The notes below the pieces were generated by a model. The model was not told the DNA's origin. It saw only the letters and a list, made by a program, of their open reading frames with translations, and did no database searches. Of a DNA stretch of 64,000 bases, positions 5,765-53,929 are shown in pieces; the stretch's first letter is position 1, and the number at the start of each line of letters is the position of its first letter. The translations under genes and the position numbers were made by a program. The DNA comes from Alphaproteobacteria bacterium (GTDB taxonomy: Bacteria > Pseudomonadota > Alphaproteobacteria > GCA-2731375): positions 96,001 to 160,000 of the forward strand of contig CBDDBZ010000038.1 in assembly GCA_965225945.1 (NCBI GenBank). The letters are read 5' to 3'.

Positions 5765-7276
5765 ATGTTGGTCGTGGAGACGATAGCGCGGATCCGGCGG
5801 GAGTATTTCGTCAAGGGGAAGCCGATCAAGGAGATCGTGCGGGACGTGAAGGTCTCGGGCAACACGGTGCGCAAGGTGATCCGTTCGCAGGCGACGGCGT
5901 TCACCTACGACCGGCGGGTCCAGCCGATGCCGAAGCTGGGGCCGTGGACGGCCGAGCTGGAGCGGATGCTGGAGGCCAACGAGACCAAGTCGAAGCGGGA
6001 GCGGCTGACGCTGCTACGGATCTCCGAAGCCCTCGAGGGTCTGGGCTATGGCGGCGGCTACGACGCGGTGCGGCGCTACGCCAAGGCGTGGCGGTGGCGC
6101 CGTTCGGCATCGACGGCGCAGACCTATGTGCCGTTGGTGTTCTCGCCGGGCGAGGCCTATCAGTTCGACTGGAGCCACGAGTACGTGGTGCTGGCGGGGG
6201 TGACGACCAAGGTCAAGGTCGCGCACGTCCGGCTGTGCCACAGCCGAATGTTCTTCGTCCGCGCTTATCCGCGCGAGAGCCAGGAGATGGTGTTCGACGC
6301 CCACGACCGGGCATTCCGGCTGTTCCAGGGTGCCTGCCGGCGAGGCATCTACGACAACATGAAGACGGCGGTGCAGACCGTCCTCATCGGCAAGGAGCGC
6401 GCGTTCAACCGGCGCTTCGTGCAGATGTGTGGCCACTACCTGGTCGAACCGACAGCATGCACGCCGGGAGCGGGATGGGAGAAGGGGCAGGTCGAGAACC
6501 AGGTCGGGATCATCCGCGGTCGGTTCTTCACCCCGCGGCTGCGCTTCAAGACCTACGACGAGCTCAACGCCTGGCTCTTGGACCAGTGCGTCGCCTACGC
6601 CCGGCGTCATCCCCACCCGGTGTTCAAGGACAGGACTGTCTGGCAGGTGTTCGAGGACGAGCGTCCGTCCCTGGTCGGCTATCGCGGGCCGTTCGACGGC
6701 TTCCACGCGGTCCCGGCGTCGGTGTCGAAGACCTGCCTGGTGCGCTTCGACAGCAACAAGTACAGCGTGGCGGCGCGCGCCGTCGGCCGTCCGGTCGAGG
6801 TCCATGCCTACGCCGATCGCATCGTCATCCGCCAGGACGGCGAGATCGTCGCCGAGCATGCCCGGCGCTTCGGCCGCGACCAGACCGTCTATGACCCGTG
6901 GCACTACGTGCCCGTGCTGGCGAGGAAGCCCGGTGCGCTTCGTAACGGCGCGCCGTTCAAGGACTGGGCGCTGCCCGGCGCCCTGGGTCGCGTGCGCGTC
7001 CGGCTCGCCGGCCACGACGACGGCGACAGGCAGATGGTCGAGATCCTCACCGCCGTGCTGGCGGATGGGCTGGCGGCGGTGGAGGCCGCCTGTGCCGAGG
7101 CGCTCGCTGGCGGCGTGTGCAGCGCCGACGTCGTGCTCAACATCCTCAATCGTCGGCGCCAGCCGTCCGAGACGGCGCCGATCCCGACGCCCGCGAACCT
7201 GCGTCTTCGCTTTGAGCCGGTGGCCGATTGCACCCGCTACGACCGCTTGAGGGGGGTCGGCCATGGAGCGCCATGA
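5765..7276 (+). CDS. istA: IS21 transposase IstA
   Basis: [23 protein letters not shown]. Confidence 0.95.
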
Positions 7277-7991
7277 GGTCCTGGAGATGATGGCCGCACT
7301 CAAGCTCGCCGGCATGCGCGACGCGTTCGACGAGGTGCTCGCCGACGGCCTCAAGCGCCAGCATCCGATGCAGCGAATCATCGGCGAGCTGTTGAAGGCC
7401 GAGATCGCCGACAAGCAGGCGCGATCCATCAAGTACCAGATGAGTGGCGCCAAGCTGCCGCTGGCCAAGGAGCTGGCCGACTTCGACTTCACCGACACCC
7501 CGGTCAACGAGCCGCTGGTCCGCGAGTTGGCGGTCGGCGGCTTCCTGGCCAACCAGCGCAACGCCGTGCTGATCGGCGGCACCGGCACCGGCAAGAGCCA
7601 TCTCGCCGTCGCCATCGCGCGGGCCTGCATCCGCGATGGCGCCCGGGGCCGCTTCTTCAACGTCGTCGACCTGGTCAACCGGCTCGAGGCCGAAGCCCGC
7701 GCCGGCCGCCAGGGCCGGCTCGCCGATCAGCTGGCCCGGCGCGACCTCGTCATCCTCGACGAGCTCGGCTACCTGCCCTTCGCCCAAACCGGAGGCCAGC
7801 TGCTGTTCCACCTCGTCAGCCGGCTCTACGAGCGCACCTCGATCATCGTCACCACCAACCTGACCTTCGGCGAATGGCCGTCCGTCTTCGGCGACGCCAA
7901 GATGACCACCGCGCTCCTCGATCGTCTGACGCACCACTGCGAGATCATCGAGACCGGAAACGACTCCTGGCGCTTCAAGAATCGGTCCTAA
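7263..7991 (+). CDS. istB: IS21 helper ATPase IstB
   Basis: Walker [29 protein letters not shown]. Confidence 0.95.
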
Positions 7992-8872
7992 AGGCAACCG
8001 ATCCACCTGCCGCCCGGTCGCCCAGGTGGGCCCACAGGAACCTCCCACGCGCGGTCCGCCGCCAGCCGCGTGGTGGGCGCGTCGGCCCGCGCGCGGGCCC
8101 CTCCTATGGACTACCTGTACGACCTCCGCCGTGCATCCCCAAAGGGGTCAACATTGCACGCCGATAGGGGGTCAATGTTCAACGCCGATTGACACCCATG
8201 TGACCTTGGCGCAGATCGCCGGCGGTTGGACCACGCCGAGTCTCGCGTAACCGCAGCTGAAACGAGCGTCTCGCCCGGCCGCGCCAGAACGGTCGGGCGG
8301 GCGGCGAGGTTCACGCTAGCGCCCGTCACCGTCTAGTCCAGATGTGCCGCGCGCCATCGCGGCCGAGGCCGGCTTCAGGCTCGCCATCTCGGGCGATCTC
8401 GCCGGCCCGGTCCATGTCACCCAGATGCGGGGCGTGCCGCTGGTCCGCGCGCTCCGCCGCCCCCTCGGCGAGACCTCGATGGTCATGCGCCTCGAGGTGG
8501 CGAGCGAGGACCGGCGCGTGGCCGAGCTGCGCCTACGCCGCTGCCCGGACAATGACCGCGGCGCCTCGCCACCAGGCGCCGAGACGAAGGCGCGGACGAT
8601 GGAGGGGGAAATCGAGAATGACGCCTGAATTAATGCTTGATGACATCGACAAGGCGTGTCGCTCGAATAGGCTGGTGCCGTCGGGAAGCGGGGTTTGGAC
8701 TGCCTCCTGACCCTTCCCGAGCACCTGTCCCGAGCCGGGTGGAGGCAAACTCTCCCCCGGCTCTTTCTTTGTGGGGCCGGTCGGGGTCGACTCCGGCCTC
8801 GGTCTCATGGCGAGCCATTTGCCCGGATCCGGCGTTAGGGACGTCGAGGCCGGGCGTGCGAAGCGCGCCGCC

Positions 8873-17075: not shown

Positions 17076-17132
17076 TGGGAGGACCGAGAAAACAGGGAGG
17101 CTGTCATGCCGATGAAATCTAGGCAAGTTTAC

Positions 17133-19092
17133 TGAGTCGGACCTTGATTTCCTTATCACCCACAGAATAGTGGCATTTTTAATCGAAGTGTCCAAGCGGA
17201 GGACCGGAACATGACCGGACAATTTTGAGCCTTTTACAAAGTTAGCTGGTTGATGGGCCTGTGACCGTACTTCATTGAAATTTATCTGAAATCGAGGTGA
17301 ACGCGAGCTTGGCTCAGAGCCACGTTTTCGAGTGCCCGGGCCACAAATAGTTTCGACCGGTTTTCAAGTTCGCCAATACGCTAAACGGACTTGAGGCGTT
17401 CAGCGGTGGACGGTGACGCGCAAGCGTGAGGTTGCCCTGCAGGCTTTCGCGTGGACGAGCCGGTCAATCGGAACTTTTGTCAGCAGCGGCAGTCTGGGCG
17501 TGGTTTCTTCGATTTTCCGGCTCGAGCAGTGGCGTGAGAAGGCGATCGCCGGGATCGATGCCTCGCTCAAGGAACGCAAGGGCGATCCGGTTAAAGGCGG
17601 ATGGGCTGGATGTTCTTGCCATCCATAGAGGTGTAAGCGGCTGGAGCTTTTGGAGGACTATCGGGGAGTTGATCATGCAGGTGGAACTGCTGGAGGCGCA
17701 AGACGGAGCGCGTCCGGCCCTCTTGGGGCGGCGGAGGTCGCGGCGATGAGTGCCGCCACGGGTCTTCCCGGCACGGAATCGTTTGGCCTACGGTCTTCCA
17801 CCGCACCGTTGCCAGCGGGTCTGATGCGGCCTGGGGTTTTGCCCGTTCCTCGTTCTACGCCATGCCCAAATCCCGGCAGCAGGCCACGCGCTGAGCGTCC
17901 CACCAGCAAAGGCGCCGGGGACCGAAGCCCTCGATCTCGGACGAGGCTCTGCTGGTGGCCAATCGAGGCCGACCTGTTGGGAGGCATCCCCCTGGGAGGG
18001 CGAGGGACACCGCAAGGTCTGGAGCTCGGCTTCGCCGCCGGCGCCGCGGGCTCTGTCGTGGCATCCGTGTTTCCCGCAAGCGGGTGCTCCGGGTGATGCG
18101 CGAGAACAACCTGCGATACTCGCCCCATCGCTGCCGCCGCCGTGGCGGAAATCCCCATGCAAACGCATCTTCGACCTTGGTCGAGATGCATCACCCATGC
18201 CCCCAACCATCATGTACAGGGGGTCGACGGATCGGCGTTCGGGTGTTCACGGATAGGGACGACATATAGTGGGCTGGGGCTGGATATTCACCGCCATCGA
18301 TCGCAATTCGGGCTCGACGCCGAAGTGCGTCGGCTGGCATGAACGACATTGCAATTTCCTGCCTTTTGGACGGCGACCTCGCTTCGATCACGGCGCCTTC
18401 ACGGCATCTCGCGATGAGGGCATGTGCGCCATGGGCTCGTATGCCTATATCGCCTCGAAAGGCACGCTGCGAGCCCGCATGCGGCTGGCTCTTGACTGGA
18501 TTCACGATCAGGCTCAACGACAGCATGCGAAAATCTGAGCGCCAGGACCCAAGTCCTTCACCGCGCCTCGATCACCAGGTCTGCGACGGCGACGCCGTTT
18601 CGAGGCCATGGCCGATTGACCTAACGCGCCTGCTGGTCCCGACATTGGAGCGCCGGGGCGCGACGGCCCTGGCGGCCGAGCTCCGGCGCCGGTCTCGAGC
18701 GCCGCTCGGAGAACTCGCGCTCGGCTCCGCGATCTCGGCAACACCGACGTCGACGTGCGTCGCGGGAACCTCATGCCCCGCGACATCCGCTGGGCATTCT
18801 CGAATGCCGTGAACGCCTCCGAAGAACTCCGCGACGGCTTGCGGCCGAAATGGAATTGGTGCGGTGGCGAGCTCGCCCTCAAGGAACAGATCATCCATGG
18901 CCGCATCTACCGCAACATCGCGGAGCTGCGGAACGCCGTCCGCGGGTTCGTCGAACAGTACAATGCCCAGTGGATCGTGGAGAAGAACGGCTACCTGAGC
19001 CCCGCTCAAGCTCGTCAGGCGTGGCACACCGCGATGTCACTCAGGCCCGCCGCATGAGACAAACTTGTGTCCAAGGAACCGGGTGCGATACA
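17133..19092 (+). mobile_element. IS3-like element, garbled copy of 48739-50158
   Basis: Left end tgagtcggacc; the last ~210 bp match the intact copy; the middle is full of indels and foreign sequence. Confidence 0.8.
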
Positions 19093-42390: not shown

Positions 42391-44487
42391 CTACTCGGGC
42401 GCCGTCAAGATCTGGACCCGGGCCTCGCTGCGCCGGCCGAGCGCGTCGATCAACACGAGCTCGGAAAATCCCGGACCGTCGACCCGCCACGCCGCCCGGC
42501 GAGCCCAGCGCGCGCTCGAGATCGGCCGGCCGTCCACCAGCCAGGTGAGCGGCCGCCGGCCGCCCTCGGCCTCGAGCGCGATTGCACCGTCGTCGCGGGG
42601 TCGAGGCAACACCGCCCGGTCGCGCGGATGGACGATCCGGGGCGGCGGGCCGGCGTGGACCCGGGCCGATCCGCGGCCACCGAGGCGGCGGAGCGCCGGG
42701 GGCAGGCCAGCGGCGGCCATGGCGCTGGCGCCCGGCGGGGGAATTGCCGCCGGCGCCGTGCTCGCCGGCAGTTGATCGAACACCCGGTACAGCAACGGCG
42801 CCGCGGTATTGACGCCGAAGTGGCCCGGCAACGGCGCGCCGTCGGGTCGGCCGACCCACACGCCGACCGTGTGATCGGCGGTGAAGCCGATCGCCCAGGC
42901 GTCACGGAACCCGTAGGAAGTGCCGGTCTTGTGGGCGATGCGTCGTCCCGCCGCGCGTCTTCCGCCGACGGCGTTCATGCTCCGGAGGATGCGGACGACC
43001 TGCCAGCGGGCGAGCGGGCGAAGTAGCGGCTCCCTCGCCGCCACGTTTCCCGGCGCGTCGGCGAGATGGCGCAGCGGGCGGACCCGCCCGTCGCTCGCCA
43101 GCGCGGCATAGAGCCGGACCAAATCCTCCAGCGTGATCCCGACCCCGCCGAGCGCCACCGCCAGACCCGGCCGCGCGTCGGGGGCGCCGAGGGCCAGGGC
43201 GATGCCTTCGCGCCGCAGCCGTTCGACGAAGGCGACCGGGCCCAACCTGTCGAGCAGCGCCACCGCCGGCACGTTCAGCGACAGGCGCAGGGCCTCCGCC
43301 AGGCTGATCTCGCCATAATGCCGGTCCATGAAGTTGGCCGGCGCGTAGTCGCCGAACTGGGTTGGCGCGTCCTCGACGATCGTCGCGGGGTGGGCGAGGC
43401 CGCGATCGAAGGCGAGGCCATAGATGATCGGCTTCAGGGTGGAACCCGGGGAGCGGACGGCGCGGGCGAAATCGACCCGGCCGTGACGCGTCGCATCGTG
43501 GAAGTCGGCGCTTCCGACGTGGGCCCGAACCGCGCGGCCAGCGTTGGCGACGACCAGAATCGCCACGTTGCCCGCCTGACCCACCTCGCGTGCCCAATCG
43601 CGGTCCATGGTTTGCAAGCGGCGCTGCAACACCGCGTCGAGGGTGGCGCGCACGACCGTGCCGTCGGGCGTGCCGGCACGCAGGCGATCGGCGAGATGGG
43701 GTGCCAGGAAGGCGGTCCGGCGGCGCGAGCGGCCCACCGGCTCGCGACGGGCCAAGGCGATCTCCGCCTTGGCGTAGCCCGCCCGCTCAGCCACCCGTGC
43801 CAACACCAGGTCCCGAACCGTTCGCGCCGCCGCCGGCGCGCGGTCGGGGCGGAGCCGGCCGGGCGCCCTCGGCAGGGCCACCAGCAAGGCCGCCTCGCCG
43901 GCCGTCAGCGCCTTCGGCTCGCGCCCGAAGTAGGCGCGCGAGGCCGCGCGCACGCCTTCCAGATTGCCGCCGAAGGGGGCGAGCGTCAGATACATGTCGA
44001 GGATCTCGTCCTTGGTGTGCCGCCGCTCGAGCTGGAGGGCGCGGAACATCTCGACCAGCTTGGCAGCCAGGCCGCGCGGACGCGGTCCCAGCAAGCGCGC
44101 CGTCTGCATGGTAAGGGTGGAGGCGCCGGAGACGATCCGGCCCGCCACCACGGCCTGTCCCGCCGCCCGCGCCAAAGCCAGCGGATCGACGCCCGGGTGA
44201 TCCCGGAAGCGCTTGTCCTCGAAGGCGATCAGCATCCGGATGTAGCGCGGATCGACCTCGCCGGCCCGGGTCGGCAGGCGAGCCATCCCGTCCGCGCTCA
44301 GATAGGACCGCAGCAGCCGGCCCTCCCGGTCGACGACCTCGGTCGAGAGGCGTTCGAGGCGGGAGAGGTCGGGCAGATAAACCGAATCGAGCAGCCGAAA
44401 GCCACCGAGCGCCAGGAGGCCGATCGCCGCCACCGCCAGGCCCGAGGCCGAGAGCCGGCCTCGGGAACTTTTGAGTCCGACTCTCAA
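42391..44487 (-). CDS. pbpC: Penicillin-binding protein 1C
   Basis: FEDKRF, SGASTLTMQ, SPGSTLKP, KTGTSYGFRDAW; TTG start overlaps the A2M stop. Confidence 0.93.
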   Translation of the reverse strand: MRVGLKSSRGRLSASGLAVAAIGLLALGGFRLLDSVYLPDLSRLERLSTEVVDREGRLLRSYLSADGMARLPTRAGEVDPRYIRMLIAFEDKRFRDHPGVDPLALARAAGQAVVAGRIVSGASTLTMQTARLLGPRPRGLAAKLVEMFRALQLERRHTKDEILDMYLTLAPFGGNLEGVRAASRAYFGREPKALTAGEAALLVALPRAPGRLRPDRAPAAARTVRDLVLARVAERAGYAKAEIALARREPVGRSRRRTAFLAPHLADRLRAGTPDGTVVRATLDAVLQRRLQTMDRDWAREVGQAGNVAILVVANAGRAVRAHVGSADFHDATRHGRVDFARAVRSPGSTLKPIIYGLAFDRGLAHPATIVEDAPTQFGDYAPANFMDRHYGEISLAEALRLSLNVPAVALLDRLGPVAFVERLRREGIALALGAPDARPGLAVALGGVGITLEDLVRLYAALASDGRVRPLRHLADAPGNVAAREPLLRPLARWQVVRILRSMNAVGGRRAAGRRIAHKTGTSYGFRDAWAIGFTADHTVGVWVGRPDGAPLPGHFGVNTAAPLLYRVFDQLPASTAPAAIPPPGASAMAAAGLPPALRRLGGRGSARVHAGPPPRIVHPRDRAVLPRPRDDGAIALEAEGGRRPLTWLVDGRPISSARWARRAAWRVDGPGFSELVLIDALGRRSEARVQILTAPE

Positions 44488-45848
44488 CGCGTGATCTCCA
44501 GCCACCCCGTCGGCCCGCGCGCGTGATAGCGCGGCTTGTACATGTCCTCGACGAAACTGCCGGGGTTGACGAAGCGGCCCGGCGTCACCGCGCGGGCGAC
44601 ATAGGCGACGGCGAAGCGGCGGCGATTGCCCCGGATGTCGAGCGCCGCGACATAGCGGTCGTCCCGCGCCGCCTCGAAGGCGGTGCGGCTCAACGGCGGC
44701 AGGAAGGTGAAGCCTCGTTTTTGGGTGCCGCCGAGGGCCGCGTTCTCGATCTCGAGCCCCGCCGGCAATAGGTCGACGACCAGCACCTCCCGCTCGCCGG
44801 ATGCCTTCGCCTCGCCCTCGACCAGCACCACCAGCCGATCGTTCCGCCGGATGCTCGCCGGGTCGACCTCGCCGCCGTCGAGGCTGAAATAGCGCCGCAG
44901 AATTGTGAAGCCGTTCTCGACCGCCTCGGGCGGCGTCGAGGGCACGCCGCGCCGGCTCTCGATGACCCGCACCGGATGGTCGCTCCGGTTCCGGATCGCC
45001 ACGCCTTCGGCGTCGTCGACCGCGAGGCGCACGCGGATCGGCTTGCCGGGGGAGCTCCGGGGCGTGCCGTCGATGGCGACGTCGAGCGCGCCGACGGCGT
45101 CGGTGAAGGCGTTCGTCGCCAACAGCAGCCAAGCCTGCTCCTGGGTGGAGAACCAGCGGCGCTGGTCGAATTGGCTCTCGATCAGCTCGGCCACCCGTTG
45201 ACGCCGCGCCGGCGTCGTCGAGAGCTCGGCCAGCAACGTCGCCAGCGCCGCGCCGTCGCGAAGGTCGGAGCCATAGTCTCGGATCGCCAACCCCTTCGGC
45301 CTTCGCTGGCGGAGTGCCGCGGCGAACAACGGCTCGGCCCGCGCCGCCTCGCCCAGGATGGTGAGCGCGCCCGCCACATGACCTAGCGCCAACCGTGTCT
45401 GCAGCCGCGCCGTGTAGTTGTCGGCGAAGTAGCGCGCCTCGCTCGCCTTCACCGCGCCGACGCGGGCGAGCGTGTAGAGGGCGTAGGCCCGGGCATGGAG
45501 CCCGCTGTTTGAGCGCCGCGCGTTGTAGCGGACCAGCCAGTTCTTGGCATGGTCGTAAGCCGCCGCCGGCACCGTGTGGCCGCGCTCTCGCGCCCGGGTC
45601 AGAAAGTCGAAGGCATAGGCGGTGAGCCAGGCATGGGAAACGCCGAAGGATTGCCAGACGGCGAAGGCACCGTCGGCGCGCTGGCGATCGAGCACGCGGG
45701 TGATGGCGCGGTCGATCCGGCGCTGCTGCGCCAAGCGGCCGGGCGCCACGCCCCAACTCGTCTGCAGGCCCGCCGCCACCAGGGTCGGGAGCGCGCGGGA
45801 AATCGTCTGTTCCGTGCAGCCGTAGGGATAGTCCCGCAGGCTCGCCAA
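44484..45848 (-). pseudogene. C-terminal part of bacterial alpha-2-macroglobulin (3' exon of the group II intron; 5' part absent from the window)
   Basis: Thioester motif YPYGCTEQ, STQEQAW, VDLLPAGLEIEN, VEDMYKP; directly upstream of pbpC. Confidence 0.9.
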
Positions 45849-46076
45849 GTTACGGTAGGAATGCGCATTGCTGCGCACCCCCCGCGGTTACGGTAGGAAT
45901 GCGCATTGCTGCGCACCCCCCGCGGTTACGGTAGGAATGCGCATTGCTGCGCACCCCCCGCAGTTACGGTAGGAATGCGCATTGCTGCGCACCCCCCGCG
46001 GTTACGGTAGGAATGCGCATTGCTGCGCACCCCCCGCGGTTACGGTAGGAATGCGCATTGCTGCGCACCCCCCGCG
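45849..46076 (-). repeat. 6 x 38-bp tandem array of group II intron domain VI + 3' splice site
   Basis: Minus-strand unit CGCGGGGGGTGCGCAGCAATGCGCATTCCTACCGTAAC; units start at 45849, 45887, 45925, 45963, 46001, 46039; one SNP at 45962; no spacers. Confidence 0.95.
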
Positions 46077-47957
46077 CAGATCCGGACGTGGTCGTTGAAC
46101 CATCCGGCTCCTACCTCGGGTGCTTGACGGCAAACCGCTGGTCCGGCCATGGGTGGCGGATGGAGGCGCGTGGCCACAGGATTTCGGTCATGCGCTCCAG
46201 TCGCTTCCAACTAAATCGGGCTCGCTGGGACCGGCGGCGTAGCGCCCGCATCCACCGGCGTTGCAGCCTGCGGAGGAACGCACGGATGAACCGGCCTGAC
46301 CCTGGGACGGCAAAGTAGTTGAGCCAGCCATTGCAGACTCGCCCCAGCCACCTACCAACTTCCCAGATGTCGTGGTGCCAGCGCTTGCGGAGCACCTCGT
46401 CGATGCGCGCCAGGGTCCTGTTGACCCGTTTGGCGACCGGTTTGCGACCAAGCCGAAAGCGTCCTCTCAGGGTCGTCGTGCAATAGTGCGTGAGGCCCAG
46501 AAAGTCGAAAGTCTCCGGCTTGCCCACCCCGCGCTGGCGCCGGTTCAAATCCGCGAACCGGCCAAACTCCACGAGGCGGGTCTTGTCCTGGTGGAGGCTG
46601 AGACCGAACCGGGCCAGCCTCTCCCGAACGTCGCGGAGGTACCGCTCCGCATCCCGCTTGTGTTGGAACCCGACAACGATATCGTCAGCGTAACGGACGA
46701 TGATCGCTTCGCCATCCGGGACGTTCGGGCGCCATTTCTTGTGGAACCACAAGTCGAGCACGTAATGCAGGAACACGTTCGCCAAGACGGGGGAGACTAT
46801 TGCCCCCTGCGGCGTGCCCATACCCGTATCTGCCCATGACCCACTCTCTATGACGCCGGCGTTCAGCCATTTCCAGATCAGACGGATGACCCGCCTGTCT
46901 CCGATGCGGTGCTCTAGGAACCTGATCAACCAATCCCGCGGGATCGTGTCGAAGTACGCCCGGAGGTCTGCATCGACTATCCAGCTGACCTTGCGCCGTT
47001 TTATCCCGAAGGCCAGGGCATCGAGCGCATCGTGCGCCCCCCGCCCCGGTCGGAACCCGTAGCTGAAGCCAAGAAACACCACCTCGTAGATCGGTGTCAG
47101 GATCACATCCACAACCGCCTTCTGGACGACCTTGTCCTCCAGCGCCGCGATCCCGAGCGGTCGTGTCCCCCCGTCCGGCTTGGGTATCTCTACCCGCCGA
47201 ACCGGCGGCGCCCGGTACGCTCCCCCTCTGTGCAGGCGCCGGTGCAGGTCGAGCAGGCGCTCATCCAGACCCTCGCCGTACATGTCCCACGTAACGCCGT
47301 CGACACCGGCTGCTGCGTCCTTCTTCAATGCGAAGTAGGCCGCACCGAGCGCGTCCGGCGTAATGTGGTGGAAGAGCGCAGTGAGACCTTCCTTCGGGTT
47401 TCTCTCTGCAGCTTTCCGTATCCGGGCCGCCGCCTGTGGCACGCTTACCCGACACTGGGTTCGGCGCGTGCTTTGGCAATCCGGATTCCCCTTGGTTGAG
47501 GCCCTTTCCTCCGGCGACTCCGCAGAAGCTCGCGCTCCCTTGTTCGCCGCCCTCACAGGTCGTATGGCCTCATCCGACTTCTTCAAACCGTTCATCATAG
47601 GCTTCGGTTTTCTCCATTCCCTACGCGGCCCCTTTACGACAACCGGGGCAGTTTGAAGACCTCCCAGGGTCCCAACAGAAGGCGTGCGAACGTGCATGGG
47701 TTCTCTGACACCGCGGGGCTCGCCGACATCTCACCAAAACGACGCCTGCGATATTGCCTTCGACCGATCTGAAAGCCTCGGCACCCCGGACCATCGCTTT
47801 TACGGTGCTCAATAGCCCTGCCCATCCATGCCGCTACCGACGCTTCGCCTGCCCCCTCACGGGAGCCAACGCACGGCTCGCGGAGAAACGTGGTTCGGTT
47901 ACTCCTTCGTTCCGGGGGACTTGCACCCCCTACCTTCTGCCAGTTCGCCTGGCGCAC
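46039..47957 (-). mobile_element. Complete group II intron (inner copy, 1919 nt; IIB-like, no endonuclease domain)
   Basis: 5' end GTGCGCCAGG at 47957; DV GAGCCGGATG..GTCCGGATC at 46110-46079; DVI with bulged A and AAC end. Confidence 0.95.
46111..47598 (-). CDS. ltrA: Group II intron reverse transcriptase/maturase
   Basis: AAGVDG, IPKPDG.TRPLGI, GTPQGAIVSPVLAN, RYADD, FDFLG, X domain; no HNH. Confidence 0.96.
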   Translation of the reverse strand: MMNGLKKSDEAIRPVRAANKGARASAESPEERASTKGNPDCQSTRRTQCRVSVPQAAARIRKAAERNPKEGLTALFHHITPDALGAAYFALKKDAAAGVDGVTWDMYGEGLDERLLDLHRRLHRGGAYRAPPVRRVEIPKPDGGTRPLGIAALEDKVVQKAVVDVILTPIYEVVFLGFSYGFRPGRGAHDALDALAFGIKRRKVSWIVDADLRAYFDTIPRDWLIRFLEHRIGDRRVIRLIWKWLNAGVIESGSWADTGMGTPQGAIVSPVLANVFLHYVLDLWFHKKWRPNVPDGEAIIVRYADDIVVGFQHKRDAERYLRDVRERLARFGLSLHQDKTRLVEFGRFADLNRRQRGVGKPETFDFLGLTHYCTTTLRGRFRLGRKPVAKRVNRTLARIDEVLRKRWHHDIWEVGRWLGRVCNGWLNYFAVPGSGRFIRAFLRRLQRRWMRALRRRSQRARFSWKRLERMTEILWPRASIRHPWPDQRFAVKHPR

Positions 47958-48783
47958 CAGATCCGGACGTGGTCGTTGAACCATCCGGCTCCTACCTCGG
48001 GTGCTTGACGGCAAACCGCTGGTCCGGCCATGGGTGGCGGATGGAGGCGCGTGGCCACAGGATTTCGGTCATGCGCTCCAGTCGCTTCCAACTAAATCGG
48101 GCTCGCTGGGACCGGCGGCGTAGCGCCCGCATCCACCGGCGTTGCAGCCTGCGGAGGAACGCACGGATGAACCGGCCTGACCCTGGGACGGCAAAGTAGT
48201 TGAGCCAGCCATTGCAGACTCGCCCCAGCCACCTACCAACTTCCCAGATGTCGTGGTGCCAGCGCTTGCGGAGCACCTCGTCGATGCGCGCCAGGGTCCT
48301 GTTGACCCGTTTGGCGACCGGTTTGCGACCAAGCCGAAAGCGTCCTCTCAGGGTCGTCGTGCAATAGTGCGTGAGGCCCAGAAAGTCGAAAGTCTCCGGC
48401 TTGCCCACCCCGCGCTGGCGCCGGTTCAAATCCGCGAACCGGCCAAACTCCACGAGGCGGGTCTTGTCCTGGTGGAGGCTGAGACCGAACCGGGCCAGCC
48501 TCTCCCGAACGTCGCGGAGGTACCGCTCCGCATCCCGCTTGTGTTGGAACCCGACAACGATATCGTCAGCGTAACGGACGATGATCGCTTCGCCATCCGG
48601 GACGTTCGGGCGCCATTTCTTGTGGAACCACAAGTCGAGCACGTAATGCAGGAACACGTTCGCCAAGACGGGGGAGACTATTGCCCCCTGCGGCGTGCCC
48701 ATACCCGTATCTGCCCATGACCCACTCTCTATGACGCCTGAGTCGGACCCGATTTCCTTGGACACAGAATTGGTTTAATCGAA

Positions 48784-49215
48784 GTGTCCAAGGAGGACCG
48801 GAACATGACCGACAATTTTGAGAACAAAGTTGCTGTTGATGGGCCTGTGGTAAACGAGGGCGAGCTTGGCTCGTCCACGTTTTCCCCGGGCCAGGTTTCG
48901 CCGGCAGGCCCGCTGGGACTTGGCCAGCGGTGGACGGTGACGCGCAAGCGTGAGGTTGCCCTGCGGCTTTTGCGTGGCGAGCCGGTGGAACTTTTGTCGC
49001 GGCAGTTGGGCGTGGAGATTTTCCGGCTCGAGCAGTGGCGTGAGAAGGCGATCGCCGGGATCGATGCCTCGCTCAAGGAACGCAAGGGCGATCCGGTAAA
49101 GGCGGAACTGGACATCGCCATGAAGCGGATCGGGGAGTTGATCATGCAGGTGGAACTGCTGGAGGCCAAGACGGAGACGTCCGGCCCTTTGGGGCGGCGG
49201 AGGTCGCGGCGATGA
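48784..49215 (+). CDS. IS OrfA (HTH)
   Basis: RWTVTRKREVALRLLRGE...SRQLGV; ATGA overlap with OrfB; start uncertain. Confidence 0.8.
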   Translation: MSKEDRNMTDNFENKVAVDGPVVNEGELGSSTFSPGQVSPAGPLGLGQRWTVTRKREVALRLLRGEPVELLSRQLGVEIFRLEQWREKAIAGIDASLKERKGDPVKAELDIAMKRIGELIMQVELLEAKTETSGPLGRRRSRR

Positions 49216-50123
49216 GTGCCGCCACCTCTCCCGGCACGGGTTTGGCCTACGGCCTCCAGCGGGTCTGTGCGGCCTGGGGTTTTGCCCGTTCCTCGTTCTA
49301 CGCCATGAAATCCCGGCAGCAGGCCACCGCTGAGCGCCCACCAGCAAAGCGCCGGGGACCGAAGCCCTCGATCTCGGACGAGGCTCTGCTGGTGGCCATC
49401 GAGGCCGACCTGGAGGCATCCCCCTGGGAGGGCGAGGGACACCGCAAGGTCTGGGCTCGGCTTCGGGTCTGTCGTGGCATCCGTGTTTCCCGCAAGCGGG
49501 TGCTCCGGGTGATGCGCGAGAACAACCTGCTCTCGCCCCATCGCTGCCGCCGCCGTGGCGGAAATCCCCATGTCGGTGAGATCATCACCCATGCCCCCAA
49601 CCTCATGTGGGGCACGGACGGCGTTCGGGTGTTCACGGTGGACGACGGCTGGGGCTGGATATTCACCGCCATCGAGCATTGGAACGCCGAGTGCGTCGGC
49701 TGGCATGTGTGCAAGCGAGGCGACCGCTTCGCCGCCCTTCAGCCAATCTCCATGGGGCTTGCGAGGCTGTATGCCTCGACCTCCGCCGGTGCGGCGCGGG
49801 GGCTGGCCTTGCGGATGGATCACGGCTCCCAGTATCTGTCGGACCACTTCACCAACCAGATCAAGTTCTGGGGCATCCAGCCGTCCTACGCCTTCGTCGA
49901 ACAGCCCCAGACCAACGGCGTCGCCGAGAGGTTCAATCGCACGCTCAAGGAACAGATCATCCATGGCCGCATCTACCGCAACATCGCGGAGCTGCGGAAC
50001 GCCGTCCGCGGGTTCGTCGAACAGTACAATGCCCAGTGGATCGTGGAGAAGAACGGCTACCTGAGCCCCGCTCAAGCTCGTCAGGCGTGGCACACCGCGA
50101 TGTCACTCAGGCCCGCCGCATGA
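49212..50123 (+). CDS. IS OrfB DDE integrase-core transposase
   Basis: WGTD, RMDHGSQY, NGVAERFNRTLKE. Confidence 0.92.
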   Translation: MSAATSPGTGLAYGLQRVCAAWGFARSSFYAMKSRQQATAERPPAKRRGPKPSISDEALLVAIEADLEASPWEGEGHRKVWARLRVCRGIRVSRKRVLRVMRENNLLSPHRCRRRGGNPHVGEIITHAPNLMWGTDGVRVFTVDDGWGWIFTAIEHWNAECVGWHVCKRGDRFAALQPISMGLARLYASTSAGAARGLALRMDHGSQYLSDHFTNQIKFWGIQPSYAFVEQPQTNGVAERFNRTLKEQIIHGRIYRNIAELRNAVRGFVEQYNAQWIVEKNGYLSPAQARQAWHTAMSLRPAA

Positions 50124-50452
50124 GACAAACTTGTGTCCAAGGAACCGGGTGCGATACACTCTCTATGACGCCGGCGTTCAGCCATTTCCAGATCAGACGG
50201 ATGACCCGCCTGTCTCCGATGCGGTGCTCTAGGAACGTGATCAACCAATCCCGCGGGATCGTGTCGAAGTACGCCCGGAGGTCTGCATCGACTATCCAGC
50301 TGACCTTGCGCCGTTCTATCCCGAAGGCCAGGGCATCGAGCGCATCGTGCGCCCCCCGCCCCGGTCGGAACCCGTAGCTGAAGCCAAGAAACACCACCTC
50401 GTAGATCGGTGTCAGGATCACATCCACAACCGCCTTCTGGACGACCTTGTCC

Positions 50453-51499
50453 GATTGAGCAACCTGATGTGTGGAAATTCGGAACGCCGTTGATCAGTCA
50501 TCCTCTGCTTTCCAAGTGATGTAGGGTTTTTCGGTGGTTTCCCATTTCTCGTCGATTTCGACGAGGATGGCGGTGACCAGACGTTCGAGCGAGGCCTCGT
50601 TGGGAAAGACCCTGACCTTTACGGTGCGGCGCTTGATCTCCTGCTGGATGGATCGCTCCATGGGGTTCGAGGTTCGCATGCGCTTTTGGTGGCGCTCGGG
50701 CAGGGCGAAGACGGCGAGGCCCTCGGGGATCGCCGTCTCCAGCCAATCGGCGAGCTTGGGGGCGCTGTCGCGGTAGGCCGCCACCAGATGGCCCAGCTCG
50801 GCCTCGGCGGCCTTGCCGTCGGCGGCGTTCCAGACCCGGCGCAGCTCCTTGCCGATGGCCTTTCGGATGGCGAGGTTGGGGGCGTGATGGATGGCGTTTT
50901 GAGCCAGATGGTACTGACAGCGCTGCCAGACGGCGCCGCCGAGGACGGCCTTGCGCGCGGCGCCGAGGCCTGGATGATCATCGGAAACGATATAGGCGAC
51001 ACCGCGCATGCCACCGGCAACCAGGGTCTCCAGGAAGGCGCGCCAGTGCACTTCGGCCTCGGAGAGCGCACAGGAAACACCGAGCACCCGGCGGCGCTGG
51101 TCGGGGCCGATGCCGATCACCGAGAGCACGGCGGCGTCGCGCACCACGCCACCCTCTCGGACTTTCTCATAGCGCGCGTCGAGGAGCAGGTAGCGGATCT
51201 CGCCCAGCGGCCGGTTGCGCCAGGCATCCAGCTCCCCATCCAAGAGCTTGGCGGCGCGGCTGACCTGGCTCGACGACAGGCTCTCCAGGCCGAACTCGCG
51301 CATCACCGCCTCGGCGTCACGGGTGGAGACGCCTTTGATATACATCTCCGCCACGGCCAGCATGACAGCGCGGCAGGAGCGCCGTCCGCGCTCCAGGGCT
51401 TGGGGGTAAAAAGGCGCCTCATGACCGGCGGTCTTGGGAACCTCGAGCCTCACCGTACCGGCCGGGGTGTCGATCTTCTTGGGTCTGGTGCCGTTGGCG
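50453..51499 (-). mobile_element. IS256 family element, 5'-truncated by IS21
   Basis: EMYIKGVSTRD, LDARYEKVR, SDDHPGL, WQRCQYH, RTSNPMER; ORF ends at 50494. Confidence 0.92.
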
Positions 51500-51702
51500 T
51501 GTCAATCGGCGTTGAACATTGACCCCCTATCGGCGTGCAATGTTGACCCCTTTGGGGATGCACGGCGGAGGTCGTACAGGTAGTCCATAGGAGGGGCCCG
51601 CGCGCGGGCCGACGCGCCCACCACGCGGCTGGCGGCGGACCGCGCGTGGGAGGTTCCTGTGGGCCCACCTGGGCGACCGGGCGGCAGGTGGATCGGTTGC
51701 CT

Positions 51703-52431
51703 TTAGGACCGATTCTTGAAGCGCCAGGAGTCGTTTCCGGTCTCGATGATCTCGCAGTGGTGCGTCAGACGATCGAGGAGCGCGGTGGTCATCTTGGCGT
51801 CGCCGAAGACGGACGGCCATTCGCCGAAGGTCAGGTTGGTGGTGACGATGATCGAGGTGCGCTCGTAGAGCCGGCTGACGAGGTGGAACAGCAGCTGGCC
51901 TCCGGTTTGGGCGAAGGGCAGGTAGCCGAGCTCGTCGAGGATGACGAGGTCGCGCCGGGCCAGCTGATCGGCGAGCCGGCCCTGGCGGCCGGCGCGGGCT
52001 TCGGCCTCGAGCCGGTTGACCAGGTCGACGACGTTGAAGAAGCGGCCCCGGGCGCCATCGCGGATGCAGGCCCGCGCGATGGCGACGGCGAGATGGCTCT
52101 TGCCGGTGCCGGTGCCGCCGATCAGCACGGCGTTGCGCTGGTTGGCCAGGAAGCCGCCGACCGCCAACTCGCGGACCAGCGGCTCGTTGACCGGGGTGTC
52201 GGTGAAGTCGAAGTCGGCCAGCTCCTTGGCCAGCGGCAGCTTGGCGCCACTCATCTGGTACTTGATGGATCGCGCCTGCTTGTCGGCGATCTCGGCCTTC
52301 AACAGCTCGCCGATGATTCGCTGCATCGGATGCTGGCGCTTGAGGCCGTCGGCGAGCACCTCGTCGAACGCGTCGCGCATGCCGGCGAGCTTGAGTGCGG
52401 CCATCATCTCCAGGACCTCATGGCGCTCCAT
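51703..52431 (-). CDS. istB: IS21 helper ATPase IstB
   Basis: Identical translation to 7263-7991. Confidence 0.95.
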
Positions 52432-53929
52432 GGCCGACCCCCCTCAAGCGGTCGTAGCGGGTGCAATCGGCCACCGGCTCAAAGCGAAGACGCAGGTTCG
52501 CGGGCGTCGGGATCGGCGCCGTCTCGGACGGCTGGCGCCGACGATTGAGGATGTTGAGCACGACGTCGGCGCTGCACACGCCGCCAGCGAGCGCCTCGGC
52601 ACAGGCGGCCTCCACCGCCGCCAGCCCATCCGCCAGCACGGCGGTGAGGATCTCGACCATCTGCCTGTCGCCGTCGTCGTGGCCGGCGAGCCGGACGCGC
52701 ACGCGACCCAGGGCGCCGGGCAGCGCCCAGTCCTTGAACGGCGCGCCGTTACGAAGCGCACCGGGCTTCCTCGCCAGCACGGGCACGTAGTGCCACGGGT
52801 CATAGACGGTCTGGTCGCGGCCGAAGCGCCGGGCATGCTCGGCGACGATCTCGCCGTCCTGGCGGATGACGATGCGATCGGCGTAGGCATGGACCTCGAC
52901 CGGACGGCCGACGGCGCGCGCCGCCACGCTGTACTTGTTGCTGTCGAAGCGCACCAGGCAGGTCTTCGACACCGACGCCGGGACCGCGTGGAAGCCGTCG
53001 AACGGCCCGCGATAGCCGACCAGGGACGGACGCTCGTCCTCGAACACCTGCCAGACAGTCCTGTCCTTGAACACCGGGTGGGGATGACGCCGGGCGTAGG
53101 CGACGCACTGGTCCAAGAGCCAGGCGTTGAGCTCGTCGTAGGTCTTGAAGCGCAGCCGCGGGGTGAAGAACCGACCGCGGATGATCCCGACCTGGTTCTC
53201 GACCTGCCCCTTCTCCCATCCCGCTCCCGGCGTGCATGCTGTCGGTTCGACCAGGTAGTGGCCACACATCTGCACGAAGCGCCGGTTGAACGCGCGCTCC
53301 TTGCCGATGAGGACGGTCTGCACCGCCGTCTTCATGTTGTCGTAGATGCCTCGCCGGCAGGCACCCTGGAACAGCCGGAATGCCCGGTCGTGGGCGTCGA
53401 ACACCATCTCCTGGCTCTCGCGCGGATAAGCGCGGACGAAGAACATTCGGCTGTGGCACAGCCGGACGTGCGCGACCTTGACCTTGGTCGTCACCCCCGC
53501 CAGCACCACGTACTCGTGGCTCCAGTCGAACTGATAGGCCTCGCCCGGCGAGAACACCAACGGCACATAGGTCTGCGCCGTCGATGCCGAACGGCGCCAC
53601 CGCCACGCCTTGGCGTAGCGCCGCACCGCGTCGTAGCCGCCGCCATAGCCCAGACCCTCGAGGGCTTCGGAGATCCGTAGCAGCGTCAGCCGCTCCCGCT
53701 TCGACTTGGTCTCGTTGGCCTCCAGCATCCGCTCCAGCTCGGCCGTCCACGGCCCCAGCTTCGGCATCGGCTGGACCCGCCGGTCGTAGGTGAACGCCGT
53801 CGCCTGCGAACGGATCACCTTGCGCACCGTGTTGCCCGAGACCTTCACGTCCCGCACGATCTCCTTGATCGGCTTCCCCTTGACAAAATACTCCCGCCGG
53901 ATCCGCGCTATCGTCTCCACGACCAACAT
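52418..53929 (-). CDS. istA: IS21 transposase IstA
   Basis: Identical translation to 5765-7276. Confidence 0.95.

Follow-up and report, generated by a model that had tools for sequence, protein, structure and literature searches.

Six tandem copies of domain VI (DVI) of a group II intron occupy positions 45849-46076, on the minus strand, of the window, that is, of the whole 64,000-nt stretch of DNA analysed here, which corresponds to positions 96001-160000 of contig C38 in the genome of a sponge-associated bacterium (G000; 6.27 Mb, 39 contigs). The array is real within the assembly, and it is probably, at a moderate level of confidence, the 3' scar of an endonuclease-less, RT-encoding group II intron that nests into itself, left behind by retrohoming and recombinational decay. 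Behind this reading stand direct observations, namely the anatomy of the locus, its junctions, the consensus of the target sites, the covariation of EBS1 and the recurrence of the arrangement at several loci. The array itself is probably without function.

At 45849-46076, TRF delimits one tandem array with a period of 38, 6.0 copies, 98% matches and no indels. The units, which start on the minus strand at 46076, 46038, 46000, 45962, 45924 and 45886, are arranged head to tail and abut with no exon in between; each consists of DVI only (38 nt) and reads CGCGGGGGGTGCGCAGCAATGCGCATTCCTACCGTAAC on that strand. Folded alone, a single unit gives a 14-bp hairpin whose 3' side contains a 2-nt UA bulge, and AAC is left as a 3-nt tail; the fold has -21.4 kcal/mol (z = -4.16), which none of 200 shuffles equalled. 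The bulged A of this fold lies 7 nt before the unit end, where the branch point of a group II intron is expected, which places the putative branch A of the six units at 46046, 46008, 45970, 45932, 45894 and 45856 (minus strand). Over its full length, the DV+DVI model RF00029 aligns with 46112-46039 (minus strand) at 35.4 bits and E = 5e-4, below its gathering score of 40; at gathering thresholds Rfam reports only RF02005 and a tRNA, and DV+DVI was recovered only through the E-value search. Unit 1 begins at 46076, right after ...CCGGATCTG, which ends at 46077 and also precedes the intron 5' end, at 47958. Unit 4 has T instead of C as its first base (45962, minus-strand reading) and is the only substituted unit of the 26 found genome-wide in a search allowing up to five substitutions. 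The sequence-only reading had equated the 38-bp unit with DVI, counted six of them, regarded their borders as defined by splicing and pointed to a C>T change at the first base of one unit, and on all these points the analysis agrees with it. The array is not a product of chance, since all six period-38 TRF arrays of the 6.27-Mb genome are made of this same unit.

The intron to which these units belong has the features of a mobile group II element. Its domain I is conserved (RF02005, 163.7 bits on 47923-47699, minus strand, against a gathering score of 49), its 5' end GTGCGCC fits GUGYG, and its domain V (DV) hairpin is followed by a DVI with a UA bulge 7 nt from the end in the predicted fold. 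An RT/maturase ORF lies at 46111-47697 on the minus strand, with a longest reading of 528 aa, and matches RVT_1 (3.2e-37) and GIIM in Pfam and TIGR04416 in NCBIfam (344.9 bits, cut-off 300); Pfam finds no endonuclease domain in it. A later start of this ORF was considered because the 260 nt ahead of the first ATG looked short for domains I-III. The RVT_1 match begins only at residue 171 and that of TIGR04416 at residue 117 of the longest reading, a pair of in-frame ATGs is located at intron nt 360/363 (47598/47595), and the segment 47697-47400 (intron nt 261-560) is as conserved as the ribozyme part between copies of 94% identity. The annotated start is therefore probably too early, the longest reading over-extending by some 100 codons upstream, and the protein may begin at the ATG pair. 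Copies of 1919 nt, with exact ends, 94-99% identity and different flanks, occur in a congener (G002), in a further related genome (G029) and in three Alphaproteobacteria MAGs; judged by these copies, the normal element is 1919 nt long and comprises a body and one DVI.

In the window, this element is found inside a copy of itself. The inner intron body is intact, contains domains I-V (1881 nt; 46077-47957, minus strand, by BLAST and RF02005) and runs from GTGCGCC at 47957 to DV and UG at 46077. Its DV hairpin occupies 46079-46110 (minus strand, from the RF00029 alignment and the fold), and the 3' strand of this hairpin together with the 2-nt linker (CCGGAUC-UG) resembles an IBS1 target. Upstream of the inner body, as sequence comparison reveals, lies an outer copy (47958-48738, minus strand) that comprises body nt 1101-1881, is 100% identical to the inner one and ends in DV and UG abutting the inner 5' end. 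At this boundary ...CCGGATCTG at 47958 is followed by the intron 5' end GTGCGCC at 47957, so that the inner intron is inserted exactly between the DV and UG of the outer copy and the position of the outer DVI. The complete ends of one intron thus lie within another, as in twintrons, at a site that obeys the target rule of the inner intron. A second piece of the outer copy, at 50157-50452 (minus strand), covers body nt 821-1116 with 2 mismatches to the inner body in 296 nt and ends abruptly at nt 821, where a Mutator-family transposase gene adjoins the truncation point (50494-51453, minus strand; PF00872, 1.1e-74). The two pieces are separated by an IS3-like insertion of about 1.4 kb (48739-50156, by Pfam and sequence comparison) with an integrase-core ORF at 49212-50123 on the plus strand. 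The sequence-only reading had placed the inner insertion at the base where the DVI unit starts, which is exact; of the two intron bodies that it described, one is complete (47957-46077), and the outer one survives only as nt 1101-1881 and nt 821-1116.

Several features of the surrounding mobile elements were also recorded. A 16-nt stretch of the intron (body nt 1101-1116) is duplicated on both sides of the IS3-like element (48723-48738 and 50157-50172); target duplications of the IS3 family measure 3-4 bp, far less than 16 nt. The element is a deleted relative of one found at 17132-19092 of the window. Furthermore, an inverted repeat of 1.5 kb with 99.9% identity connects 51495-53000 with 6694-8198 and overlaps a transposase gene (52418-53929, minus strand) with rve and Mu-transposase C-terminal domains; these are probably two copies of one IS.

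Downstream of the array, the 3' exon (44484-45848, minus strand) is the C-terminal part of a bacterial alpha-2-macroglobulin (A2M) gene, with TED and MG10 domains in Pfam, followed by pbpC. Read on the sequence, the array would present branch sites and 3' splice sites in six identical copies, and the A2M frame would be restored only by use of the last. An intact A2M orthologue is present in G002, with ...CCGGGTCTG|CTCTCG at the homologous site. In the source genome, the A2M 5' exon is found on another contig, as the 5' flank (C31:260086-260175) of an array of at least 2.9 bodies that starts at C31:260176, where the first intron base is T rather than the otherwise invariant G. By this arrangement, the A2M gene is split between contigs C31 and C38 and already broken. 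Contigs from other sequencing runs carry the A2M exon and run on past 45848 (two records), which fits an uninterrupted gene in other samples.

The insertion sites define a clear target rule. G000 and four other genomes provide 16 distinct non-self 5' flanks, every one of which ends in G(A/G)TCTG (GATCTG in 10 and GGTCTG in 6), and the A2M orthologue site in G002 has GGGTCTG. The candidate EBS1 is the sequence CAGAUC in a hairpin loop of domain I (intron nt 187-192; 47766-47771, minus strand), which is complementary to the GAUCUG or GGUCUG that each insertion site has at -6 to -1. The assignment is supported by covariation of loop and exon in two sister families: the homologous loop is CCCGU in intron family 2, whose 5' exon ends in GCGGG, and GGGUC in the three copies of intron family 3, whose 5' exon ends in GACCC. 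The 3' strand of the intron's own DV, together with the linker, reads GGAUCUG (GGATCTG in DNA) and pairs with CAGAUC, so that each copy contains a target, one base ahead of its DVI; the complementarity that the sequence-only reading had proposed between EBS1 and the intron's own DV end is hence sustained. Introns of other kinds are entered at the equivalent position: at least four non-self sites (C24/C37, C34:398142 or C34b, L014/L019 and L026) fall at the DV|DVI junction of an intron from another family, three of them followed immediately by the host DVI, and L020 is probably another such insertion. The base at +1 speaks less clearly for self-insertion: 18 distinct non-DVI 3' flanks have T there 13 times, C and G twice each and A once, whereas the self site offers C, not the preferred T, a point against nesting.

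Nests that involve further intron families occur at some of these sites. ORF-less family-2 introns of about 690 nt (L006, C24:80300-80986; L002, C33:303980-304625) are inserted in the DVI of a host intron, at a depth of six nt, and the window's intron sits at the DV|DVI junction of the same host, which results in a three-intron nest at C24 and C33. In the family-2 intron of C33, the 5' region is mosaic and includes DVI halves from the window's intron. A second apparent type of tandem DVI, with a period of 32 and two TRF copies (C24:80302-80364 and C33:303979-304041), was set aside, as it consists of the family-2 DVI plus the rest of the host DVI; from its sequence, it is another nesting and not a self array.

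Under the favoured explanation, the 1919-nt intron would enter group II introns, its own resident copies included, by site-specific retrohoming at their DV|DVI junction, through pairing of its EBS1 loop CAGAUC with G(A/G)UCUG, the site being supplied within its own copies by the DV end and linker, GGAUCUG. Each nesting would convert body-DVI into body-[body-DVI]-DVI, and repeated events would yield a block of bodies followed by a block of DVIs, never alternating units. The bodies, being 1.9-kb repeats, would later be lost or moved between loci by homologous recombination, or be broken by IS elements. At the window locus, the outer copy would in this manner have been truncated and split, while the 38-nt DVIs would have stayed attached to the 3' exon.

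The genome-wide census, for which the contigs of G000 were searched with the body by BLAST and with the unit by fuzzy matching, corresponds to this order of parts. About 11 loci of the 1919-nt intron were found, among which five loci hold eight identical body|body junctions, all of the form ...CCGGATCTG|GTGCGCC. In addition, 18 DVI|DVI junctions were counted, and the DVI arrays, six in number, have between 2 and about 6 units; at no locus of the genome is a DVI found between bodies. C20, C24 and C34:328597 have one body and one DVI each, and C37 has two bodies and one DVI. C39 holds one body without its first 30 nt and three DVIs, and C34b one body and three DVIs followed by the diverged DVI of the host intron. 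C33 has one body plus a copy cut at nt 845, and five whole DVIs (6.4 copies by TRF), one unit of the array being 2 nt short (36 nt), with rearranged pieces after it. The window locus has one body plus fragments and six DVIs, and C38:555991-562657 has three bodies and a part that reaches the contig end (at least 3.5 in all) with exactly four DVIs, a locus counted in favour of nesting. Finally, C31 holds two bodies and a part to the contig end, and at C35 the contig ends within the body, with two DVIs. The copy at C34:328597-330605 is probably dead: 56 nt are inserted after its body nt 511, and 39 nt are duplicated internally near nt 1042-1081. Nesting predicts equal numbers of bodies and DVIs, and recombinational loss of bodies would leave at least as many DVIs as bodies, which fits the counts at most loci.

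These junctions also distinguish the arrangement from other tandem forms. Head-to-tail integration of the EcKTE56.groEL type was rejected, as no DVI lies between bodies anywhere and the intron 3' end|5' end junction is absent at all eight body|body junctions of the genome. Circularly permuted group II introns, the subject of PMC8637638, have the order DV-DVI, exon, DI-DIV; here the order is DI-DV and then DVI, with a body|body junction that contains neither DVI nor exon, and this class was rejected as well. Neither is the array an alternative-splicing intron of the C.te.I1 type, given that its units are DVI only, 38 nt long, with no exon in between. Read-through of a lariat by the RT would produce a unit that includes DVI up to the branch A, and it was discarded because the repeated body ends before DVI. 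For the integration of DVI-less intron circles, which had been raised as an alternative in the sequence-only reading, nothing was found in favour, and no mechanism is known.

Evidence from sequence variants bears on how often nesting took place. The two bodies B1 and B2 differ at 7 sites in C31 and at several sites plus a 12-nt indel in C37, and together with the differences in the window these distinct SNP haplotypes within arrays fit separate donors. Exchange between loci is likewise evident from three facts: C24 and C37 share a 90-nt 5' flank and differ downstream, the A2M 5' exon lies on C31, and contig ends overlap. Such ends fall inside intron bodies at C31:265560, C35:410923 and C38:562657, and the C31 end overlaps that of C38 over 614 nt and that of C35 over 118 nt, with no mismatch in either case; nested intron arrays are the breakpoints of this assembly. 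As a result of recombination between loci, the number of DVIs would remain tied to the 3' flank, and that of bodies would be reshuffled. Self-nesting by retrohoming is well supported by the junctions, the recurrent arrays, the target sites and the EBS1 loop, and it is probable that retrohoming, rather than recombination of DNA, made the body|body junctions and that most of the six units each go back to a nesting of their own, not to slippage or to donors with several DVIs.

A less likely course of events is that one or two self-nestings occurred and that the DVI block then grew in the manner of a minisatellite, by replication slippage or unequal crossing-over, in which case the number six would be uninformative on insertions. 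The units are indeed perfect direct repeats, and their number can change, as illustrated by C37, with its two bodies and single DVI, and by C33, with its 2-nt deletion and rearranged end; in addition, the C38:556143 array has three full bodies that agree at every variable site, which shows that duplication or homogenisation acts on arrays. However, the two variant units (T at 45962 and the 36-nt unit of C33) are singletons that were not copied to their neighbours, which argues weakly against recent slippage, arrays at six separate loci would still need at least six independent starts, and bodies in three arrays carry different haplotypes.

Several of these facts also weigh against nesting itself, or at least against a literal count. 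Tandem duplication, too, would produce the identical bodies at C38:556143. DVIs are not conserved in number (C37, C33), and, if the C31 and C38 ends join, the resulting array would have at least six bodies but four DVIs. Array sizes come in pairs (3 and 3; 6 and about 6), which fits copying or summing of arrays as well as one-by-one growth. The recurrence of self-insertion, as anticipated in the sequence-only reading, is supported by the eight identical body|body junctions at five loci and the six DVI arrays, and its combination with recombinational loss of bodies gains from the junctions, from the haplotypes and from DVIs being mostly as many as or more than the bodies. The use of the unit count as a tally, with six units standing for up to five rounds, is not supported, in view of C37, the C33 deletion, the flank exchange and the paired sizes.

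The paired sizes are also at the centre of another possibility, considered rather improbable, according to which introns with several DVIs move as a whole, the distal DVI providing the branch point and the 3' splice site and the inner ones being carried along, so that insertion of a body with three DVIs into another such copy would give two bodies and six DVIs. Exactly one body with three DVIs is present at two unrelated sites, C39 and C34b (the latter between the DV and DVI of the host), both loci of about six DVIs have exactly two bodies, and the T variant is unit 4, which would be the first DVI of the resident and would carry at +1 the base preferred in 13 of 18 sites. Against this, the other genomes searched yielded no copy with several DVIs, the SNP haplotype of the inner body in the window differs from those of both three-DVI copies, C is the first base of unit 4 in the C33 array, and a DVI 76 nt away from DV would be required, while the length of the DV-DVI linker is critical in group II introns. 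Equally doubtful is the corollary that the ribozyme would branch at and splice after a DVI 38-190 nt from DV, the window array being a sum of 3 and 3 and the T at 45962 an optimised homing site. Were multi-DVI introns mobile, the genome would be a natural experiment on the distance of DVI from the catalytic core.

Apart from these biological alternatives, the arrays could be assembly artefacts or a minority haplotype of the MAG, the real locus having one intron with one DVI. In favour of an artefact, the assembly has 39 contigs with an estimated contamination of 5.6%, and three contig ends fall inside intron bodies; run X1, the best DNA source, provides no contig on the array interior, and no such junction appears in the other public assemblies searched. 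The silence of X1, like the lack of joints and of any contig spanning the stretch in X1, X3, X4 and X6, is nevertheless uninformative, because contigs built with k = 31 cannot resolve a 38-nt repeat. Moreover, the six arrays differ in unit number, have unique flanks and keep an exact 38-nt phase; along with the eight identical junctions within contigs, this is unlike what collapse or mis-joining yields, and the G6 run is unbroken, with no indels in 26 of 27 units, all of which makes an artefact very unlikely. In the interval 45500-46400 of the window, intron words are 28 to about 400 times deeper than A2M-exon words in the metagenome-type runs X1, X3, X4 and X6. The intron may be more abundant by far than the assembly shows, or many organisms of the samples may have it; for the unit number these depth ratios carry no weight.

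Comparison with related genomes indicates that the arrays are a derived state. The intron is present in 3 of 41 related genomes, G000 included. In G002, which belongs to the same genus and is assembled in five contigs, seven matches were obtained (five of nt 1-1919, one of nt 1-1927 and one of nt 1-847), among which no second DVI or nesting was found, the flanks of three having been inspected. G029 has two full copies of 94% identity, each a body with one DVI. A scan for the 5' junction in 185,579 species genomes retrieved eight loci in four MAGs (three Alphaproteobacteria and one Binatia fragment), and the five complete copies among them again have one DVI each. As relatives always show a body with a single DVI, the arrays of G000 would have arisen later. 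The EBS1 loop and the DV end are identical among the copies of G000, G002 and CBDHDN, yet only G000 shows self-nesting, and the seven matches of G002 in particular count against nesting.

The wider searches were concordant. The DVI|DVI junction has no match in genome_contigs or in metagenome_contigs, and the self DV|5' end (body|body) junction none in metagenome_contigs, scans that may exclude G000; this absence from other public genomes and metagenome contigs also speaks against nesting. A generic pattern for two-DVI tails matched in 4 of 401 genomes of the class, with 19 matches in G000 and a reversed control matching in one genome. The matches in G191, G226 and G269 were discarded: they are repeats with a period of 30 or 18, or one isolated match, and by eye they are not DVI hairpins, so that this pattern yields no convincing tandem DVI case in the 400 other genomes of the class. 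By these sequence searches, the DVI arrays are peculiar to G000. It had been suggested that such arrays be looked for next to related RTs: six are found in G000, and none in any other genome or metagenome contig searched.

Introns that home repeatedly into introns are not new. In Methanosarcina acetivorans, up to five introns are nested, and repeated homing into introns is balanced by recombinational deletion, as summarised in the relevant section of PMC4424553. That case, reported by Dai and Zimmerly in 2003 and described through the same source, resembles the present one in the site-specific homing of an intron into an intron, which makes of the intron a perpetual homing site. It differs in that homing is there, by the title of the 2003 paper, into related intron ORFs, and here into the DV|DVI junction; furthermore, identical copies of the element itself are invaded here, which leaves blocks of bodies and blocks of identical tandem DVIs, and the relevant section of PMC4424553 mentions no DVI array. 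Bacterial twintrons have been described as Tr.e.I7 of Trichodesmium (PMC4649490) and in Thermosynechococcus and Wolbachia (PMC8919778), and the lycophyte mitochondrial intron cox1i1149g2 is inserted into itself, the inner copy at position 652 of the outer (PMC7049729). All of them place one group II intron inside another, and cox1i1149g2 is likewise a self-invasion, although, as presented in the relevant parts of these sources, they are single nestings at other positions, without tandem DVIs or three or more bodies.

Two further systems share single aspects of the arrangement. The IIB1 intron EcKTE56.groEL undergoes head-to-tail tandem integration, as shown by junction sequencing in the pertinent part of PMC12584367, and, as here, a second copy joins the resident one because the latter still presents a usable target. 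In that system the second copy is placed upstream, with a 3' end|5' end junction, whereas here the junction is DV end|5' end and DVIs accumulate on the 3' side. C.te.I1 of Clostridium tetani, in the pertinent parts of PMC4424553 and PMC3919590, has four DV/DVI repeats that serve as alternative 3' splice sites, and it is similar in presenting several 3' motifs in a row within one intron. Its repeats comprise both DV and DVI, each with an exon ORF, and lead to distinct proteins, unlike the identical DVIs alone, without exons, of the present array. A full-text search of the literature, covering main texts, found no description of tandem DVI arrays. Cycles of intron-in-intron homing with recombinational deletion are thus already known, and self-nesting at the DV|DVI junction with DVI arrays is a new form of them.

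Regarding its meaning, the system is that of a bacterial group II intron with a target rule that fits the conserved domain V end, by which introns, itself included, would become safe landing sites. Its genomic signature, runs of bodies followed by runs of identical domain VI hairpins, is unusual and easily recognised, and it is absent from the other public genomes searched. For annotation, it implies that 38-nt minisatellites beside RT genes can be intron scars and that contig breaks can fall in nested intron arrays. The arrays would record past self-invasions roughly rather than as an exact count, and, with 1 to 6 identical branch sites, they may serve as natural constructs for the choice of branch point and 3' splice site.
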